The notes beneath the pieces were generated by a model. It made no database searches. It saw only the letters and a program-made list of their open reading frames with translations, and was not told the DNA's origin. The position numbers were made by a program, and so were the translations under genes. Positions 1 to 8,869 of a DNA stretch of 8,869 nucleotides are shown in pieces. The stretch is from a virus. Its lineage: Duplodnaviria > Heunggongvirae > Uroviricota > Caudoviricetes. Position 1 is the first letter of the stretch. Every line of letters starts with the position of its first letter. Where the stretch lies: positions 1 to 8,869 of IMG/VR virus record IMGVR_UViG_2740892258_000018. One strand, 5' to 3'.

Positions 1-1338
1 ATGACGGGGGCAGATAGTGAAGGCGGAGCTGAGGTGTATTCAGCCGCAACCACGCGTGACCAGGCCAGAATCGTGTTTGAAGACGCCAAAAATATGGTCA
101 GAAAAGCCCGGTCGACACTCGGGCGGTTGTTTGATTTCAACAAGCTGGCGATTTACCAGGAGCAGAGCGCATCAAAATTTGAACCGCTTTCCTCGGATGC
201 AAACAACCTGGACGGTCTGAACATCCACTGCGCCATTATTGATGAGCTGCATGCACATAAAACCCGCGACGTGTGGGACGTTCTGGAAACGGCAACCGGT
301 GCCCGTCTGCAGTCCCTGTTATTTGGTATCACCACGGCTGGCTTTAACAAGGAAGGGATTTGTTACGAGCAGCGTGATTACGCCATCAAGGTATTGCGAG
401 GCTATAACAGCGACGTGGAGGGCGCTGTAAAAGACGACTCTTACTTTGCGATCATTTACACGCTCGATGAGGGAGATGATCCGTTTGATGAAACGGTCTG
501 GCAGAAAGCGAATCCTGGCCTGGGCATCTGTAAACGCTGGGATGATCTGCGTCGTCTGGCGAAAAAAGCGAAGGAGCAGGTCTCTGCGCGGGTGAATTTT
601 TTTACCAAACACATGAATGTGTGGGTCACTGCCGAATCTGCCTGGATGGATATGATTAAGTGGGAGAAGTGCGAATACATTGCTCCACAACATGAGCTGA
701 AAACATATCCCATGTGGGTCGGCGTCGACCTTGCTCATAAGATTGATATCTGTGCGGCGGCAAAACTCTGGCGAACCGATAACGGACATGTTCATGCTGA
801 TTTTAAATTCTGGCTTCCGGAAGGACGGCTGGAACGATGCTCGCGGCAGCAGGCAGAACTTTACCGGAAGTGGGCGGAGATGGATAAGCTCATCCTGACG
901 GATGGTGATGTTATCGATCATGCTCAGATAAAAAGTGACTTACTGGAATGGATTGGCGGTGAAAACCTCAGGGAACTGGGATTTGACCCGTGGAGCGCAA
1001 TGCAGTTCAGTCTGGCACTGGCTGAAGAAGGGATACCGCTGGTGGAGGTTCCGCAGACGGTCCGCAATCTGTCAGAGGCCATGAAGGAAACGGAATCACT
1101 GGTTTATGCCGGGCGTTTCCATCACAGCAATCATCCGGTCATGAACTGGATGATGTCTAACGTTACTGTAAAACCGGACAAAAACGACAACATCTTCCCG
1201 AATAAATCCACGCCGGAAGCCAAAATCGACGGCCCTGTTGCGCTTTTTACAGCCATGAGCCGCTTTCTGGTAAATGGCGGGGGCGTGAATGACTTTCTGT
1301 CCACGCTTGATCCTGATGAGGACCTGTTAATTCTGTGA
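1..1338 (+). CDS. Phage terminase large subunit (HK97/Terminase_1-like), 5'-partial: window starts inside the gene
   Basis: 445-aa ORF running from window edge to TGA at 1336-1338. Contains an ATPase Walker-B-like segment (HCAIIDELH) followed by a TTAG motif and a C-terminal nuclease-type region. Walker A is absent, so the N-terminus lies upstream of the window; the ATG at position 1 is probably coincidental. Family assigned by recognition of the translated sequence, no search run. Confidence 0.85.
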   Translation: MTGADSEGGAEVYSAATTRDQARIVFEDAKNMVRKARSTLGRLFDFNKLAIYQEQSASKFEPLSSDANNLDGLNIHCAIIDELHAHKTRDVWDVLETATGARLQSLLFGITTAGFNKEGICYEQRDYAIKVLRGYNSDVEGAVKDDSYFAIIYTLDEGDDPFDETVWQKANPGLGICKRWDDLRRLAKKAKEQVSARVNFFTKHMNVWVTAESAWMDMIKWEKCEYIAPQHELKTYPMWVGVDLAHKIDICAAAKLWRTDNGHVHADFKFWLPEGRLERCSRQQAELYRKWAEMDKLILTDGDVIDHAQIKSDLLEWIGGENLRELGFDPWSAMQFSLALAEEGIPLVEVPQTVRNLSEAMKETESLVYAGRFHHSNHPVMNWMMSNVTVKPDKNDNIFPNKSTPEAKIDGPVALFTAMSRFLVNGGGVNDFLSTLDPDEDLLIL

Positions 1339-1355
1339 AACAGCTTATTACTGAT

Positions 1356-1496
1356 ATGACCGGGCTGATCGGTTTCGGTCTGCTCACTGCTGGCGTTTAT
1401 CTGTATGCAGGTCTGCCAGCGTCTCTGATGCTGTCTGGCTGTTTGTTGCTGCTTTATGCACTGGTGGTGTCCATGAGGAGAAAACATGCTTCTTGA
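1356..1496 (+). CDS. Hypothetical small membrane protein (46 aa, two predicted TM helices) filling the terminase-portal gap
   Basis: ORF ATG 1356 to TGA 1494-1496, not in the supplied track (under 60 aa). Translation MTGLIGFGLLTAGVYLYAGLPASLMLSGCLLLLYALVVSMRRKHAS is strongly hydrophobic with a basic C-terminus. Its stop overlaps the portal start (1486). An in-frame GTG at 1335 overlapping the terminase stop would give 53 aa. No convincing Shine-Dalgarno, so coding status is uncertain. Confidence 0.3.
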   Translation: MTGLIGFGLLTAGVYLYAGLPASLMLSGCLLLLYALVVSMRRKHAS

Positions 1497-2712
1497 TGCT
1501 CTGTTTCGCAGTGAGCCTCTGGAAAATCCCTCGGTTCCGGTAACCGGAGAGGCCGCTGAGACGGATAATATTTTTGCCCGGGATGTGTATGTCAGTCCGG
1601 AAACGTCCATGAGGCTGGCTGCTGTCTATGCCTGTATTTATGTTATTTCATCCAGTGTGGCTCAGATGCCCCTGCATGTGATGCGAAAAACGAATGAGCA
1701 TGTTCAGCCGGCACGCGATCACCCGTTGTTCTGGCTCGTTCATGATGAACCGAATGCCTGGCAGACCAGCTATAAGTGGCGGGAACTGAAGCAGCGTCAT
1801 GTGCTGGGGTGGGGCAATGGTTATACGTGGGTGAAACGTAATCGTCGTGGCGAGGTTACCAGTCTTGAATGCTGTATGCCATGGGAAACCACGTTACTTA
1901 ACACTGGAGGGCGTCATACCTACGGTGTGTATAACGAAGAGGGTGCATTTGCGGTAAGTCCGGACGACATGATCCATATCAGGGCGCTGGGAAACAATCA
2001 GAAAATGGGACTGAGTCCGATCATGCAGCATGCTGAAACCATTGGTATGGGAATGAGTGGTCAGCAGTATACCAGTGCTTTTTTTAACGGTAATGCCCGT
2101 CCTGCCGGGATTATTTCTGTGAAAAATGAACTGAACGAACAGAGTTGGAGCAGGCTCAAGAATATGTGGCAGCGGGCGGTGACAGCGCTTCGCAGTCAGG
2201 AAAATAAAACCATGCTGCTGCCTGCGCAACTGGATTACCGTGCCCTGACAGTTTCTCCGGTGGATGCTCAGATCATTGATATGACCAAGCTGAACCGGTC
2301 GATGATTGCCGGAATTTTTAATGTCCCGGCGCACATGATTAATGACCTGGAAAAAGCCACATTTTCGAATATTACACAGCAGGCGATTCAGTTTGTTCGC
2401 TACACGATGATGCCCTGGGTTGCGAACTGGGAGCAGGAGCTTAACCGTCGCCTGTTTACCCGCACAGAACGGGCTGCCGGGTATTACGTTCGTTTCAACC
2501 TTACAGGATTGCTCCGCGGGACTCCACAGGAGCGTGCGCAGTTTTATCACTTTGCCATTACAGATGGCTGGATGAGCCGGAATGAAGCGAGGGCATTTGA
2601 GGACATGAACCCGGTTGATGGTCTGGATGAAATGCTGGTCAGCGTAAATGCAGCAAATCCGTTGAATGATTTTAAAGATACGAAAGGCAAAGAGGAAAAG
2701 AACGATGAATGA
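1486..2712 (+). CDS. Phage portal protein, HK97 family
   Basis: 408-aa ORF with strong RBS (AGGAGA 1475-1480, 5-nt spacer). Size and sequence character fit HK97-type portals, including a C-terminal acidic tail. Sits directly after the terminase, the canonical order. Confidence 0.85.
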   Translation: MLLDALFRSEPLENPSVPVTGEAAETDNIFARDVYVSPETSMRLAAVYACIYVISSSVAQMPLHVMRKTNEHVQPARDHPLFWLVHDEPNAWQTSYKWRELKQRHVLGWGNGYTWVKRNRRGEVTSLECCMPWETTLLNTGGRHTYGVYNEEGAFAVSPDDMIHIRALGNNQKMGLSPIMQHAETIGMGMSGQQYTSAFFNGNARPAGIISVKNELNEQSWSRLKNMWQRAVTALRSQENKTMLLPAQLDYRALTVSPVDAQIIDMTKLNRSMIAGIFNVPAHMINDLEKATFSNITQQAIQFVRYTMMPWVANWEQELNRRLFTRTERAAGYYVRFNLTGLLRGTPQERAQFYHFAITDGWMSRNEARAFEDMNPVDGLDEMLVSVNAANPLNDFKDTKGKEEKNDE

Positions 2713-3304
2713 CCGTGAAACGCGCTGTTACAGCGGGGAAGTGCGGGCAGAACAATATGATAATGCCCCGACTCATATTTTGGGGTATGGCTCGGTATTT
2801 AACAGTCGTTCAGAACCTCTGTGGGGATTTCGTGAAATCATCAAGCCGGGGGCTTTTGACGACGTGCTGAATGATGATGTACGTGGATTGTTTAATCATG
2901 ATCCTAATTTCATTCTCGGACGAAGTTCTGCCGGCACGTTGTCATTATCAGTGGATGAACGTGGTTTGCGTTACGACATTGTTGCACCGGATACGCCGAC
3001 GATTTGTGACCTGGTGCTGTCACCAATGTTGCGTGGTGACATTAATCAGTCCTCGTTCGCGTTTCGCGTCGCTCGTGATGGAGAGAGCTGGTATGAAGAC
3101 GACGAGGGGATTGTTATCCGGGAAATCACGCGCATTTCTCGTCTGTATGACGTCAGCCCGGTGACATATCCGGCCTATCAGGACGCAGACTCTGGTGTCC
3201 GCTCAATGAAAGCCTGGCAGGAAGCGCGGGCGAGTGGTGCGCTGAAGAAAGCTGTTAACGAACGAATGGCGCGTGAGCGTCTTTTGACCCTTCTTAATGC
3301 ATAA
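2705..3304 (+). CDS. Prohead maturation protease, HK97 family (peptidase S78-like)
   Basis: Track ORF starts at 2666, but the ATG at 2705 has a GAGGAA SD 8 nt upstream and overlaps the portal stop (ATGAATGA), so 2705 is the preferred start. About 199 aa; contains the conserved His-containing LFNHD motif and a downstream Ser-rich segment (GDINQSSFAFR) typical of HK97 gp4-type proteases. Position between portal and capsid is canonical. Confidence 0.8.
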   Translation: MNDRETRCYSGEVRAEQYDNAPTHILGYGSVFNSRSEPLWGFREIIKPGAFDDVLNDDVRGLFNHDPNFILGRSSAGTLSLSVDERGLRYDIVAPDTPTICDLVLSPMLRGDINQSSFAFRVARDGESWYEDDEGIVIREITRISRLYDVSPVTYPAYQDADSGVRSMKAWQEARASGALKKAVNERMARERLLTLLNA

Positions 3305-3318
3305 GGATACTACTGACG

Positions 3319-4536
3319 ATGAAACTTCATGAGATGAAGCAAAAACGAAACACCATTGCAAAGGATATGCGTGCACTGCATGAAAAAATTGGTGATAACG
3401 CATGGACTGATGAGCAACGGGCAGAGTGGAACAGGGCGAAAGCTGAGCTGGATGCGCTGGATGAGCAAATCGCCCGTGAAGAAGAGTTGCGCCGTCAGGA
3501 TCAGGCATATGTGGATGAGTCCGGGCCGGAAGAGCGCCAGAATAATGAGGCGGAGAACGGGAAAAAGGCGGTGGAAGAGAAGCGCGCTGCGGCATTTAAC
3601 CGTTTTCTGCGTGCCGGATTTGCAGAACTGAATGCTGAAGAGCGTAATCTGATGCGTGAACTGCGGGCTCAGAGTGTAACAACGGATTCTCAGGGCGGAT
3701 ATACGGTGCCCACGCAGATGCGTAACAAAATCATTGACACCATGAAGGCTTATGGCGGGATTGCCAGTGTTGCGCAACTTCTGACCACATCAACCGGGCA
3801 GGATATCACCTGGTCAACGTCTGATGGCACGACTGAAGAGGGCGAACTGCTGGCGGAAAATACAGCCGCAACGGAACAGGATGTGACGTTCGGGACCGCT
3901 ATTCTGGGGGCTAAAAAGCTGTCATCAAAAATAATTCGTGTGTCCAATGAGCTGCTCCAGGACAGTGGGGTGGATATTGAATCTTATCTGGCAAACCGTA
4001 TTGCCCAGCGTATTGGTCGTGGAGAGGCGAAATATCTGGTTCAGGGGACCGGAACGGGATCACCGTTACAGCCAAAAGGGCTGGCAGCGTCGGTGACGGG
4101 AATCATCCAGACTGCAGCCTCTGCCGCTTTCACCTGGAAAGAAATGAATGCCCTGAAACATGCCATTGATCCGGCATATCGTGGTGGGCCGAAATACCGC
4201 TGGGCATTCAATGATGCCACATTGCAGACTATTGAAGAGATGGAGGATGGACAGAAACGCCCGTTATGGCTGCCGGATATTGCAGGCGGTACGCCGGCTA
4301 CTGTGCTGGGGATCCCTTATGTTATTGATCAGGCTATTGACGGGATTGGTACCGGAAAAAAATTCATTTTCCTGGGGGATTTCAACCGCTTTATCATTCG
4401 CCGCGTTACTTATATGGAACTGAAACGTCTGGTTGAGCGTTATGCTGAGTTTGATCAGGTGGCATTTCTGGCTTTCCATCGTTTTGACTGTGTGCTGGAA
4501 GATGTGGCAGCCATCAAGGCGCTCACTGGCAAATAA
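3319..4536 (+). CDS. Major capsid protein, HK97 family, with N-terminal delta (scaffolding) domain
   Basis: 405-aa ORF with AAGGAT SD about 10 nt upstream. The N-terminal ~110 aa are charged and coiled-coil-like (EQRAEWNRAKAELDALDEQIAREEELRRQ...), as in HK97-type capsids that carry their scaffold in cis. The rest reads as an HK97-fold capsid body. Followed by an intrinsic terminator. Confidence 0.85.
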   Translation: MKLHEMKQKRNTIAKDMRALHEKIGDNAWTDEQRAEWNRAKAELDALDEQIAREEELRRQDQAYVDESGPEERQNNEAENGKKAVEEKRAAAFNRFLRAGFAELNAEERNLMRELRAQSVTTDSQGGYTVPTQMRNKIIDTMKAYGGIASVAQLLTTSTGQDITWSTSDGTTEEGELLAENTAATEQDVTFGTAILGAKKLSSKIIRVSNELLQDSGVDIESYLANRIAQRIGRGEAKYLVQGTGTGSPLQPKGLAASVTGIIQTAASAAFTWKEMNALKHAIDPAYRGGPKYRWAFNDATLQTIEEMEDGQKRPLWLPDIAGGTPATVLGIPYVIDQAIDGIGTGKKFIFLGDFNRFIIRRVTYMELKRLVERYAEFDQVAFLAFHRFDCVLEDVAAIKALTGK

Positions 4537-4556
4537 CCACTCGTTGTTCAGTTACA

Positions 4557-4580
4557 GACCGCGCCGACGCGGTTTTTTTA
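4557..4580 (+). terminator. Rho-independent terminator/attenuator downstream of the major capsid gene
   Basis: Sequence GACCGCGCCGACGCGGTTTTTTTA: stem ACCGCG (4558-4563) pairs with CGCGGT (4568-4573) around loop CCGA, followed by a run of 7 T (4573-4579). Lies 21 nt after the capsid stop. Confidence 0.6.
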
Positions 4581-4602
4581 TGCCCGCACAGTGTTGCGGG
4601 CA
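4581..4602 (+). promoter_or_regulatory. Perfect 8-bp inverted repeat (TGCCCGCA-N6-TGCGGGCA) overlapping the SD of the connector gene
   Basis: TGCCCGCA at 4581-4588 and its exact reverse complement TGCGGGCA at 4595-4602, spacer CAGTGT. The 3' arm overlaps the GGAG SD (4603-4606) of the gene starting at 4613. No T-tract follows, so it is more likely an operator or translational-control hairpin than a terminator. Confidence 0.35.
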
Positions 4603-4612
4603 GGAGTTTCTG

Positions 4613-4930
4613 ATGGCAGCAATAGTGGAAAAACTCAGGGCGCAGTGCCGTATTGATACAGATGATGCAACTGATGATGAGTTACTGATGCTGTATTTCC
4701 GGGCTGCCTGCCGCAAGGCAGAAAATTTTATCAACCGTAAGCTTTATGAGGAGACGGTGCCGGAAGGTGATCCTGAAGGGGTGCTTATAGCTGATGATGT
4801 TTTGCTGGCGCTCATGTTGCTGGTCGGGCACTGGTACGAAAACCGGGAAAATTCCTCAGATGTCAGCAAGGCACCAGTCCCGTTTGGTTTTTCTTCTCTG
4901 CTGGAGCCTTATCGTTTTATTCCTTTGTAG
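4613..4930 (+). CDS. Head-tail connector protein (gp6-like, Phage_connect_1 family)
   Basis: Track ORF 4433-4930 overlaps the capsid gene and spans the terminator, so the ATG at 4613 (GGAG SD 4603-4606, 6-nt spacer) is the likely start. About 105 aa; the N-terminal pattern LRAQCRIDTDDATDDELLMLYFRAA is characteristic of gp6-like connectors. Confidence 0.75.
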   Translation: MAAIVEKLRAQCRIDTDDATDDELLMLYFRAACRKAENFINRKLYEETVPEGDPEGVLIADDVLLALMLLVGHWYENRENSSDVSKAPVPFGFSSLLEPYRFIPL

Positions 4931-4938
4931 GAGGAGAC

Positions 4939-5277
4939 ATGCAGGCGGGCAGATTACGTGATCGCGTAATTATTCTGAATGTCACCACCGCCCGCTCTCC
5001 GTCAGGGCATCCGGTGGAGACGGTGACGGAGGGAGCTACCGTATGGGCAGAAGTTAAGGGTATCAGCGGGAGGGAGATAATCTCAGGCGGAGCAGAAACC
5101 GCTCAGGCTACGGTCAGAGTCTGGATGAGATTCCGGCGCGATGTGACAGCGACTTCACGTCTGAAAGTGCTGACCGGTGCATTTAAAGGGGCCATTCTGG
5201 GTATAGAAGGTCCACCAATACCGGATGCACGCGCTACCCGGCTTGAAATACTCTGCAGCCTGAAGGGGAATGTGTGA
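4939..5277 (+). CDS. Head closure / head-tail adaptor protein (SPP1 gp16-like, Phage_H_T_join family)
   Basis: 112-aa ORF with strong SD AGGAGGAG (4929-4936). Pattern RDRVIILNVTTARSPSGHPVETVTEGATVWAEVKGISGRE...RVWMRFRRDV fits head-closure proteins. Canonical position after the connector. Confidence 0.75.
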   Translation: MQAGRLRDRVIILNVTTARSPSGHPVETVTEGATVWAEVKGISGREIISGGAETAQATVRVWMRFRRDVTATSRLKVLTGAFKGAILGIEGPPIPDARATRLEILCSLKGNV

Positions 5278-5723
5278 TGGATTTCAGTCTTGATTTTTCC
5301 GGCCTGGCGGATATTGCACGGGATTTGGAGACGCTCAGCAGGGCAGAAAACAATAAGGTTCTGCGCGATGCCACCCGTGCCGGTGCTGAAGTTATGCGGG
5401 ATGCAGTTGTTGAACGTGCGCCGGAGCGAACCGGGAAACTGAAGAAAAATGTGGTTGTTCTCACTCAGCGTTCAAAGCGTCGGGGGGAAATTATCTCGGG
5501 TGTCCACATTCGCGGACGGAACCTGCGAACCGGAAACAGTGATAACAGCATGAAAGCCAGCGATCCCCGAAATGCATTTTACTGGCGCTTTGTGGAGCTG
5601 GGAACGATAAACATGCCCGCGCATCCATTCATTCGCCCGGCTTTCGATACGACAGAGGAACTGGCAGCACGGATTGCTATACAGCGAATGAATCAGGCTA
5701 TTGATGAGGTCTTAAGTAAATGA
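5277..5723 (+). CDS. HK97 gp10-family phage protein (neck/tail-attachment component)
   Basis: ATG at 5277 overlaps the upstream TGA (TGATG), indicating translational coupling. About 148 aa, with the ERAPERTGKLKKN segment matching the P..TG.L pattern of the gp10 family. Confidence 0.65.
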   Translation: MDFSLDFSGLADIARDLETLSRAENNKVLRDATRAGAEVMRDAVVERAPERTGKLKKNVVVLTQRSKRRGEIISGVHIRGRNLRTGNSDNSMKASDPRNAFYWRFVELGTINMPAHPFIRPAFDTTEELAARIAIQRMNQAIDEVLSK

Positions 5724-6055
5724 GAGAGGCCACACTGTATTCCCTGTTGTCTCAGCTGGCCGGAGGACAGGTTTATCCTTATGTGGTCCCACTGACGGAG
5801 GGAAAGCCTGCGGTATCTCCGCCGTGGCTGGTGTTTTCTGTGGTGTCTGACACGGCATCTGATGTGCTTGATGGGCAGGCTGAATCCAGAATTACCGTGC
5901 AGATCGATGTCTGGGCGACAGTACCTGATGACGCAGATAATATTCGTGAGCAGGCGCTTGATGCGGTAAGAAAACTGGCTGCCGCTACGGTCCGATGCGT
6001 GAAAACCCGGGCTTGCAGCGACCGTTCCGGTCGCGCCGCCCCTGTCGCGCCGTGA
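5720..6055 (+). CDS. DUF3168-like protein (gp11-like tail completion/neck protein); C-terminus possibly altered
   Basis: ATGA overlap with the upstream gene at 5720-5723. N-terminal two thirds (LYSLLSQLAGGQVYPYVVPLTEG...WLVFSVVSD...ITVQIDVWA) fit DUF3168 proteins. The last ~20 aa (RCVKTRACSDRSGRAAPVAP) are Cys/Arg/Pro-rich and read like translated GC-rich non-coding DNA. Confidence 0.5.
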   Translation: MREATLYSLLSQLAGGQVYPYVVPLTEGKPAVSPPWLVFSVVSDTASDVLDGQAESRITVQIDVWATVPDDADNIREQALDAVRKLAAATVRCVKTRACSDRSGRAAPVAP

Positions 6056-6439
6056 CCTGCGCTCCCTGCACACCTGACGGTGTGTGAGGAAACTGCGCCT
6101 GATGGCGCAGCAGTCCTCCCTCCTGCCGCCCCCCCTGCGGCCTGTTTCCCCGCTGTGGACTTTCCGGGGGGCAGACGTAACCCCCTCCCGTTCCATCTGT
6201 CCAGGGTGAGATGCACCGGCCACAAAATTTTTAGCCATGAACCCGGCAAAAAATTTTGCGTCCGCCCCCGGACAGCTGCCCCGTGAGGCGGTAAACGGGC
6301 CCCCATCGGAAAGGTCCACTGCGGGGAGAAACCCCTGTGAAGTGGACGGCAGGAGGAGCTTTCGCTCCTCTGAAGGGGCACATGAACGTCCCGTCGCCGG
6401 TATCCGGTTTATCTCACATCTTTCAGTCAGGAGGTTCTT
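6056..6439 (+). promoter_or_regulatory. GC-rich structured non-coding region upstream of ssb; candidate single-stranded-DNA promoter (Frpo/ssi-like)
   Basis: 384 bp with no credible ORF. Nested imperfect inverted repeats: CACACC/GGTGTG (6070-6084); CTGCGCC/GGCGCAG (6093-6110); long-range arms CCCGCTGTGGACTTTCCGGGGGG (6148-6170) versus CCCCCATCGGAAAGGTCCACTGCGGGG (6300-6326); inner AT-rich pair CACAAAATTTTT (6219-6230) versus AAAAAATTTTG (6248-6258). Ends at the ssb SD AGGAGG (6429-6434). Plasmid leading regions are known to carry ~300-nt hairpin-forming ssDNA promoters upstream of ssb, psiB and ardA. Confidence 0.45.
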
Positions 6440-6967
6440 ATGAGTGCACGTGGTATCAACAAGGTCATCCTCGTCGGGCGTCTGGGCAATGATCCGGAAG
6501 TCCGTTACATCCCCAACGGGGGCGCAGTGGCAAACCTGCAGGTGGCCACATCAGAAAGCTGGCGTGACAAACAGACGGGGGAGATGCGGGAGCAGACGGA
6601 ATGGCACCGCGTGGTGCTGTTCGGCAAGCTCGCGGAAGTGGCAGGTGAATATCTGCGCAAGGGTGCGCAGGTCTACATCGAAGGTCAGCTTCGCACCCGT
6701 AGCTGGGAAGATAACGGTATCACCCGTTACGTCACTGAAATTCTTGTTAAGACCACGGGCACCGTGCAGATGCTGGGACGTGCACCACAGCAGAACGCTC
6801 AGGCGCAACCGAAGCCTCAGCAGAATGGGCAGCCACAGAGTGCTGACGCGACGAAAAAAGGTGGCGCGAAAACGAAAGGCCGTGGACGTAAGGCCGCGCA
6901 GCCAGAGCCTCAGCCGCAACCGCCGGAGGGGGAGGATTACGGGTTTTCAGACGACATCCCGTTCTGA
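6440..6967 (+). CDS. ssb: Single-stranded DNA-binding protein, conjugative-plasmid type
   Basis: 175-aa ORF with AGGAGG SD 5 nt upstream. N-terminal OB-fold ([99 protein letters not shown]), a Gln/Pro-rich linker and the acidic tip DDIPF. The linker is [21 protein letters not shown] rather than the Gly/Gln-rich linker of chromosomal E. coli SSB, so it resembles F/IncI plasmid SSB more closely. Confidence 0.95.
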
Positions 6968-6987
6968 TCGGGCTGACTGTGACAACC

Positions 6988-7006
6988 GCCCCGCCCTGTG
7001 CGGGGC
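6988..7006 (+). other. GC-rich hairpin in the ssb - ParB-like intergenic region
   Basis: GCCCCGC (6988-6994), loop CCTGT, GCGGGGC (7000-7006). No T-tract follows, so it is more likely an mRNA-stabilising or processing hairpin than a terminator. Confidence 0.3.
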
Positions 7007-7024
7007 ATCACCGGAGATATGAGG

Positions 7025-8869
7025 ATGAGCGAATATTTCAGAATACTTCAGGGACTCTGCCCTGCTGGCGCAGACGGAGGAAGTGAGCGTGCCGCTGGCC
7101 TCGCTGATTAAATCACCGCTGAATGTGCGCACGGTGCCGTATTCTGCGGAGTCCGTCAGCGAACTGGCGGAGTCCATTAAGGGCGTCGGACTGCTGCAGA
7201 ATCTGGTCGTGCATACCCTGCCTGGTGACCGTTACGCTGTCGCCGCAGGCGGTCGCCGACTGGCAGCACTCAACATGCTGGCAGAGCGCAACATCCTTCC
7301 GGCTGACTGGCCTGTACGCGTGAAGGTCATTCCGCAGGAGCTGGCGACTGCCGCATCGATGACCGAGAACGGTCAGCGTCGGGATATGCACCCTGCCGAA
7401 CAGATTGCCGGATTCCGCGCAATGGCGCAGGAAGGCAAAACGCCTGCACAAATCGGTGATTTGCTGGGCTATTCACCCCGCCACGTTCAGCGAATGCTTG
7501 TCAGGCGCTGGCGCTGGAGAACGACACCGCGCGTCAGGTGCAGGTGTTTGAAGCCGCCTGCCAGTCGGGATGGGGCGGTAAACCGGAAGTACAGACCATT
7601 CGTCGTCTGGTGACCGAAAGTGAAGTGGCGGTGGCGGGGAACAGTAAATTCCGCTTCGTGGGGGCTGATGCCTTCTCGCCAGACGAACTGCGCACCGATT
7701 TGTTCAGCGATGACGGGGACGGTTATGTCGACCGCGTGGCGCTCGATGCCGCCCTGCTGGAAAAACTCCAGGCTGTCGCAGAGTTCCTTCGGGAAGCCGA
7801 AGGCTGGGAATGGTGCGCCGGACGCATGGAGCCTGTCGGTGAGTGCCGTGAAGATGCCCGGGCATACCGCAACCTGCCGGAGCCGGAAGCGGTGCTGACG
7901 GAGGCGGAAGACGAACGTCTGAACGAACTGATGGCTCGTTACGACTCGCTGGAAAACCAGTGTGAGGAATCTGACCTGCTGGCAGCAGAAATGAAGCTGA
8001 TTGACTGCATGGCGAAGGTCAGGGCGTGGACGCCGGAGATGCGTGCCGGAAGTGGCGTGGTGGTGTCCTGGCGTTACGGTAATGTGTGTATCCAGCGTGG
8101 TGTGCAGTTGCGCAGTGAGGATGATGTGGCTGACGACGCTGACCGCACGGAACAGGGGCTGGAGAGCGCGTCAGTGGAGGAAATTAGTCTGCCGTTGCTG
8201 ACTAAATTGACCTCAGAGCGCACGCTGGCAGTCCAGGCAGCACTGATGCAGCAACCGGACAAATCCCTGGCACTGCTGGCATGGACGCTCTGCCTGAATG
8301 TGTTTGACAGCAAAGCGCATAGTAGTCCCGCCAGAATTCGCCTGGAATGTGAGCATTATGCGCTGACCAGCGATGCACCGTCAGGGAAGGAAGGTGCCGC
8401 ATTCATGGCGCTGATGGCAGAACACTCTCGTTTTGCTGCCCTGCTGCCGGAAGGATGGGAACGGGATATGACGACGTTCCTGTCACTTAGCCAGGAGGTG
8501 CTGTTATCCCTGCTCAGTTTCTGTACCGCGTGCAGTCTTAACGGTGTCCAGACCCGCGAGTGTGGTCACACGTCACGCAGTCCGCTGGACTCGCTGGAAA
8601 CCGCCATCGGCTTTCACATGCGCGACTGGTGGCAGCCGACAAAAGCAAACTTCTTCGGACACCTGAAAAAGCCGCAGATTATCGCAGCCCTGAATGAGGC
8701 CGGACTGTCCGGTGCCGCACGGGACGCGGAGAAAATGAAGAAAGGCGATGCGGCTGAACATGCAGAGTTCCATATGAAAGACAACCGCTGGGTGCCTGGC
8801 TGGATGTGTGCACCACGTCCACAGACGGATGCCACTGAACACACCGCTAACCTGGCTGATGCCGCCTGA
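7025..8869 (+). pseudogene. ParB-N-domain (ParB/sulfiredoxin-like) protein gene of plasmid leading-region type, interrupted by two frame changes
   Basis: ATG 7025 (GGAGA SD 7012-7016) opens MSEYFR... but stops at TAA 7109-7111. A second frame is open from 7029 to 7613 and carries the ParB-N-like core (GVGLLQNLVVH...AAGGRRLAALNML...RDMHPAEQIAGFRAMAQEGKTPAQIGDLLGYSPRHVQRML). From about 7502 the first frame resumes (QALALENDTARQVQVFEAACQSGWGG...) and runs ~455 codons to TGA 8867-8869. The three segments together make one ~600-aa protein. Confidence 0.7.
7031..7050 (+). repeat. 10-bp tandem duplication (GAATATTTCA / GAATACTTCA) in the first codons of the ParB-like gene
   Basis: Direct adjacent copies at 7031-7040 and 7041-7050, one mismatch. 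Removing one copy fuses ATG 7025 in frame to the ParB-N domain, giving MSEYFRDSALLAQTEEVSVPLASLIK... Confidence 0.7.

Follow-up and report, generated by a model that had tools for sequence, protein, structure and literature searches.

A phage–plasmid junction in an Escherichia coli draft contig, most probably a false assembly join

The two components of the DNA analysed here, the head module of a CDT-I prophage and the leading region of IncI plasmids with its Frpo-like hairpin and ssb, are ordinary and already known. The prophage in E. coli strain IHE3034 is lambdoid, carries cdtABC (CDT-I) and occupies NC_017628.1 at ~2.106–2.147 Mb, and its gp17 gene precedes the major tail, chaperone and tape-measure genes. 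The leading regions of IncI1/B/O/K plasmids (LR213460.1, NZ_CP023387.1) hold Frpo/ssi, ssb, DUF905, a ParB-like gene, psiB and psiA. Aberrant excision (specialized transducing) and template switching form joins in which phage DNA meets other DNA over a few bases of microhomology, and such events leave one or few junctions near the attachment site or in one replicon.

We analysed a stretch of DNA of 8,869 nt (the window), in which prophage and plasmid sequences of these two kinds meet at a junction that we call J1. The window corresponds to positions 54187–63055 of contig CVOH01000144.1, a single draft contig of 82,682 bp in the NCBI assembly GCA_001245225.1 of a draft E. coli genome, and a literature search on the source accession returned as its sole match an unrelated fungal paper. 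We mapped ~20 kb around the window against IHE3034, LR213460.1 and two ColV plasmids. Positions in this larger locus are given in L004 coordinates, where the window position equals the L004 position minus 4281, and the features discussed below are collected in Table 1.

Table 1. Coordinates of features in the window and, where marked L004, in the surrounding locus
Feature	Coordinates	Strand	Description
Prophage head-module piece	1..5979	+	IHE3034 annotation; 100% identity over 5979 bases to ST95-type chromosomal prophages
Chimeric ORF, 111 aa	5720..6055	+	gp17 tail completion protein residues 1–87 plus 24-residue foreign tail
Junction J1	5977..5979	.	GGC, 3 bases common to both parents; crossover within or next to them; three-way alignment and BLAST boundaries
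Plasmid intergenic DNA read through from gp17	5980..6055	+	24 codons plus stop; G+C-rich left flank of the Frpo-like element
IncI1/B/O leading-region piece a	5977..7056	+	100% to LR213460.1 15241–16320 (L006 7242–8321); annotation from NZ_CP023387.1
Long imperfect hairpin, Frpo/ssi-like	6121..6356	-	ssDNA fold; intact, upstream of ssb
Junction J2	7056..7057	.	338 plasmid bases missing, 1-nt overlap
Junction J3	7498..7499	.	67 plasmid bases missing, no overlap
Chromosome: hprS, hchA, porin	L004 1–3294		
Phage-like piece	L004 3294–3591		Phage-like part 92% identity
Internal cvaA fragment, ColV plasmid	L004 3592–4277		
Prophage piece	L004 4278–10260		
Four collinear IncI pieces	L004 10258–14845		338, 67 and 437 bases skipped
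Second cvaA fragment	L004 14844–15076		98.7% identity
bor/iss-like piece	L004 15077–15650		87% identity
Another phage piece	L004 15651–15876		
Piece without assigned source, 156 nt	L004 15877–16032		
ColV ets operon	L004 16033 onward		

Sequence discontinuity within gp17

We determined the position of J1 by a megablast search with window positions 5700–6500 and by a three-way alignment with the prophage and plasmid sequences, which together place a sharp breakpoint between window positions 5979 and 5980 (60165 and 60166 in source-contig coordinates). In the megablast search, phages and chromosomal prophages match positions 5700–5979 only and >5000 plasmid records match positions 5977–6500 only, with up to 100% identity in either case, and no record in the phage, plasmid or complete E. 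coli collections covers 80% of the query. In the alignment, prophage identity ends at 5979 and plasmid identity begins at 5977. Across positions 5850–6300, the G+C content rises from ~0.53 to 0.62–0.66 and the GC skew becomes negative. J1 marks an exact break in the sequence and is not a matter of random variation in composition.

The reading frame that runs across J1 encodes a chimeric product that reaches 32.5 bits, above the cutoff of 24.5, for Pfam family PF11367 (Tail_completion_gp17, formerly DUF3168) and belongs to this family, residues 29–103 matching profile positions 27–109 of 124. We compared it with native gp17, a protein of 114 aa found in IHE3034 and in phage vB_EcoS-640R1. In the protein alignment, the chimeric product equals native gp17 through residue 87 (…DAVRKLA) and then diverges: the native tail of 27 residues, PSVISKTQGYDPDSRLSRATLEFQVIA, is absent, and the product ends in a foreign tail of 24 residues, AATVRCVKTRACSDRSGRAAPVAP. 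The DNA encoding this foreign tail is 100% identical to IncI1/B/O/K plasmids, and its frame differs from that of the sole plasmid-annotated ORF in this stretch (L001 3830–4111, hypothetical). Translation of plasmid intergenic DNA accounts for the foreign C-terminus of gp17. A full-length gp17 that retains its native C-terminus and precedes the major tail gene is not present in the window; the DNA 3′ of gp17 is plasmid DNA.

Neither the junction nor its product recurs in the collections that we searched. Searches of 5,426 complete E. coli genomes, 72,556 plasmids and 50,697 phages gave no record that covers both sides of J1, and the exact 30-mer at J1 has 0 occurrences in the collections of viruses, species-representative genomes and metagenome contigs. 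We also looked up the exact 111-aa chimeric protein in an index of 153 billion gene positions, which includes Logan assemblies of E. coli isolates, and obtained one contig only, CVOH01000144.1. The junction is private to one assembly, as is characteristic of an assembly chimera.

A separate irregular gp17 coding sequence is annotated in ON470600.1 (phage vB_EcoS-569R6; locus L002, positions 6021–6470), a partial phage record. Its translation includes a stretch of X residues and ends in a longer C-terminus of unrelated sequence, which hints at ambiguous bases or a local mistake in that record.

To the left of J1, the window carries a truncated TerL, a small ORF, the portal, an S78 protease, the major capsid protein, the head–tail connector, the head closure protein, an HK97-gp10-like protein and codons 1–87 of gp17. 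Positions 1–5979 are 100% identical to the prophages of IHE3034, O18, PMV-1 and many other ST95-type ExPEC strains and 98–99% identical to induced E. coli phages. The complete prophage piece measures 5983 bp and begins 4 nt before the window, at a seam between L004 positions 4277 and 4278, where an internal 686-bp fragment of the ColV gene cvaA adjoins terL at ~codon 141; the 'TerL' of the window is therefore N-terminally truncated, with 445 aa. The native right end of the CDT-I prophage lies on the same contig, ~10 kb to the left of the window, with 99.97% identity. This end (L133 1–3164, corresponding to contig positions 44187–47350) comprises the last bases of cdtC, the attR copy of the tRNA-Ser site and zinT, as in IHE3034, and because it is present on the same contig, the head piece appears to stem from the prophage that resides there. 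The source contig also carries ColV genes (cvaA, etsABC) and IncI-type plasmid DNA, and the source isolate is probably an ST95-like ExPEC.

To the right of J1, positions 5977–8869 constitute an IncI1/B/O/K leading region with a G+C-rich hairpin region, ssb, DUF905, the ParB-like gene and psiB. This part is 100% identical to LR213460.1 in three collinear pieces (5977–7056, 7056–7498 and 7499–8869). The first of these contains the Frpo-like region, ssb (6440–6967) and the first DUF905 codons (from ~7025). The gap at J2 takes out most of DUF905 together with the first 26 codons of the ParB-like gene, and across J2 the best ten of ~5000 plasmid matches all need two pieces. J3 frameshifts the ParB-like gene into two ORFs (7083–7613 and 7538–8869+), and the 174-aa product spanning J3 was found by exact-protein look-up in CVOH01000144.1 only.

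We further folded positions 6060–6420 as single-stranded DNA and obtained an energy of −106.7 kcal/mol (z = −8.2), which 0 of 100 shuffled sequences equalled. The fold contains one long hairpin with nested inverted repeats, ~140 nt to the right of J1, and the intact plasmid forms the same hairpin. It immediately precedes ssb and shares its orientation, as in IncI/K plasmids. By its position and shape, the hairpin is a putative Frpo/ssi-type single-strand promoter; Frpo elements upstream of ssb genes have been described (PMC11541004). A search of the hairpin region against Rfam returned no family, with a chance snoRNA match (E = 0.34) as the only hit. In the intact plasmid, a related element of ~200 bp overlaps the position of J1 (L006 7137–7335), and it recurs at L006 13481–13680 and on IncF plasmids.

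The initial annotation had placed a phage–plasmid junction at the 3′ end of the DUF3168-like gene, with phage DNA to its left, a plasmid leading region to its right and a sharp breakpoint predicted in between. Nucleotide BLAST bears out this description to the base, G+C content and skew change across the junction, and the hairpin-rich region described on the right side is real. Similarity to native full-length gp17 stops after residue 87, and the last codons of the gene do derive from GC-rich non-coding DNA, although they number 24 and not ~20 as had been estimated.

Seams and duplicated overlaps in the source contig

J1 is accompanied by further discontinuities. Mapping revealed ~12 abrupt seams in ~12.7 kb (contig 53.2–65.9 kb) with overlaps of 0–6 nt, which link five sources: the chromosome, two prophages, a ColV plasmid and an IncI plasmid. 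Through these seams, chromosomal DNA and an operon of a ColV plasmid appear to be connected in the contig. Most pieces are 99–100% identical to their sources, with three short exceptions at 92%, 98.7% and 87% identity to the references tried. Every seam runs through a gene or unique sequence, and the genes cut at seams are cvaA, terL, gp17, DUF905, parB (twice) and psiA.

One of the pieces carries a Bor/Iss-family lipoprotein gene (L004 15162–15455) with ~87% DNA identity to the iss region of ColV plasmids; because identity reaches only this level, the gene is probably a prophage bor and not a plasmid iss.

Three perfect repeats are each located at a seam: (i) Two cvaA fragments that are consecutive in the native gene (NZ_LS992172.1 30669–30437 and 30492–29807) share a perfect overlap of 56 nt, which is present in the contig as a direct repeat (L004 3592–3647 and 15021–15076) with the copies 11,429 nt apart. 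(ii) Two phage pieces share a perfect overlap of 57 nt, here in inverted orientation (L004 3294–3350 and 15651–15707) and 12.3 kb apart. (iii) The chromosomal part contains a perfect tandem duplication of 47 nt (L004 1827–1920) that is absent from the ST95 references. Each copy of the 57-nt sequence has one native flank only, and when the two phage pieces are rejoined via these 57 nt, they yield a contiguous match to 6 IMG/VR phage contigs with 99.6% identity. Natively adjacent pieces that have been placed apart thus keep perfect overlaps of k-mer size with one native flank per copy, which is a second mark of an assembly chimera. We also considered that the 57-nt inverted repeat represents transposon ends and ruled this out, since the sequence is ordinary conserved DNA that is widespread among lambdoid phages (at least 120 IMG/VR contigs), with one native flank per copy.

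Origin of the junction

We consider J1 to be, most probably, a false join in a draft genome assembly and not a biological feature. Two unrelated pieces of the DNA of one isolate would have been put end to end during contig or scaffold building, the first an internal 5983-bp stretch of the chromosomal CDT-I prophage and the second the leading region of an IncI-type plasmid. The 111-aa 'gp17' with its GC-rich tail would then represent a gene-caller reading across the seam, a product with no function, and no tail genes would have been replaced. Most plausibly, the pieces would have originated in silico from a de Bruijn graph, with overlaps of k−1 and k near 57, and would have been concatenated by scaffolding, gap closing or gap removal. 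The overlap of 56–57 nt kept by both sets of native neighbours points to graph pieces laid end to end without merging, whereas breakage and joining or template switching does not predict that such overlaps are kept, least of all twice and at near-equal length. In all likelihood, the seams, their uniqueness and the duplicated overlaps therefore arose in the computer and not in the cell.

It is unlikely that J1 stems from a real complex rearrangement that serially copied or joined short segments of the chromosome, of resident prophages and of ColV and IncI plasmids. Such a rearrangement would most likely proceed through repeated template switching, of the kind known from microhomology-mediated break-induced replication, or through a series of illegitimate recombination events, and its outcome would be a non-functional patchwork beside the yedS-type porin gene. 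Such an origin agrees with a contig that is continuous and without gaps, with overlaps of 0–6 nt as expected of microhomology-mediated or blunt joining, with the preserved order and orientation of the four IncI pieces, as produced by serial forward template switches, and with breaks of the prophage piece that do not fall at repeats in reference genomes. However, most pieces have remained 99–100% identical to their sources, which would place all ~12 junctions between the five sources in the very recent past, and none of the junctions is found in another genome. Moreover, two separated pairs of native neighbours keep their perfect overlap of 56–57 nt at both new positions, and the contig seemingly joins the chromosome to a ColV plasmid operon. 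We regard as similarly improbable that the locus is a very recent chromothripsis-like patchwork, assembled at one locus from about a dozen fragments by a series of microhomology-mediated template switches, of which J1 would be one.

Several points count against an artefact. The seams contain no N characters, the three duplicated overlaps are unequal in length (47, 56 and 57 nt), three short pieces have no near-identical counterpart in the references tried, and illegitimate recombination also yields joins with 0–3 nt of microhomology. An overlap of 3 nt alone cannot mislead a de Bruijn assembler, and for this reason a false join at J1 requires that a scaffolding, gap-closing or N-removal step be assumed. 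Given its many contigs (at least 144), we assume that the assembly is a short-read draft.

We examined several possible causes for the positions of the piece ends. At three ends, the missing native flanks have a G+C content of 0.76 and 0.71 (IncI) and 0.17 (chromosomal), and such extreme composition would be compatible with gaps in short-read coverage; we rejected it as the general reason why pieces end where they do, since most ends have ordinary composition. Repeat-driven breaks do not account for the ends of the prophage piece, the native flanks of which are single copy in IHE3034 and other ST95 complete genomes. The missing 338, 67 and 437 bases were also considered as collapsed repeats shared with the leading region of an IncF plasmid, and exact k-mers showed no correspondence to the ColV plasmid NZ_LS992172.1, a proxy that may differ from the strain's own plasmid. 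Ligation of restriction-digest fragments was dismissed, as inspection by eye revealed no sites at J1 or J3.

By far the least probable origin is a single phage–plasmid recombination that created a hybrid mobile element of the phage-plasmid or transducing type, with the leading region replacing the tail module. In favour of such an event, the head module to the left is complete from portal to neck, the DNA to the right begins a short way before the undamaged Frpo-like hairpin and ssb, and the 3-nt microhomology resembles aberrant excision junctions. Against it, the 5′ end of terL is cut by another seam just before the window, two more breaks in the plasmid part destroy DUF905 and the ParB-like gene, psiA is cut too, no replication, tail, lysis or integration genes lie alongside, the flanks are chromosomal and ColV genes, and the junction is found nowhere else. 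A phage-plasmid is a coherent element that combines a complete virion module with plasmid replication or partition functions; in the locus, the phage module and the plasmid module are each cut at both ends and internally, and there is neither a replicon nor a tail module. The initial annotation had attributed the junction to a biological recombination that made such a phage/plasmid hybrid, an interpretation that we abandon for a junction unique to one draft contig, set among ~12 seams with duplicated overlaps and followed by two further breaks of the plasmid part within the window. It had also proposed that the native C-terminus of gp17 and everything downstream were replaced. Both are indeed missing at J1, but the tail genes have probably not been lost from the strain because the native right end of the prophage is on the same contig.

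If J1 is an artefact, as we favour, CVOH01000144.1 is unfit as evidence for phage–plasmid recombination, for a chromosomally integrated ColV or IncI plasmid, or for variant forms of gp17 and the ParB-like protein, and its value is one of quality control; protein databases already list chimeric ORFs from this contig as singletons. Should the junction be real, the locus would be a rare natural multi-replicon complex rearrangement in E. coli, an organism without classical end joining.

Comparison with known systems

The left part of the window shares gene order and products with the CDT-I prophage of ST95 ExPEC over positions 1–5979. Compared with this prophage, the copy in the window is without the first ~140 codons of terL, without the 27 C-terminal residues of gp17 and without the tail module. 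Compared with IncI1/B/O/K plasmids, the right part is without 338 and 67 bases, so that DUF905 and the ParB-like gene are broken, and the G+C-rich stretch to the left of position 5977 and all upstream anti-restriction genes are absent.

Joins formed by aberrant excision or template switching share with J1 the abutment of phage and non-phage DNA at a few bases of microhomology. In contrast to the few junctions of these events, the locus described here contains ~12 junctions between five sources, together with duplicated overlaps of 56–57 nt. The closest match is to mis-scaffolded short-read drafts. Apart from overlap lengths that are not all equal and seams that are free of N runs, the locus agrees with such drafts in its private junctions, its clustered seams, its duplicated overlaps of k-mer size with one native flank each, its small collinear 'deletions' and its small perfect tandem duplication.
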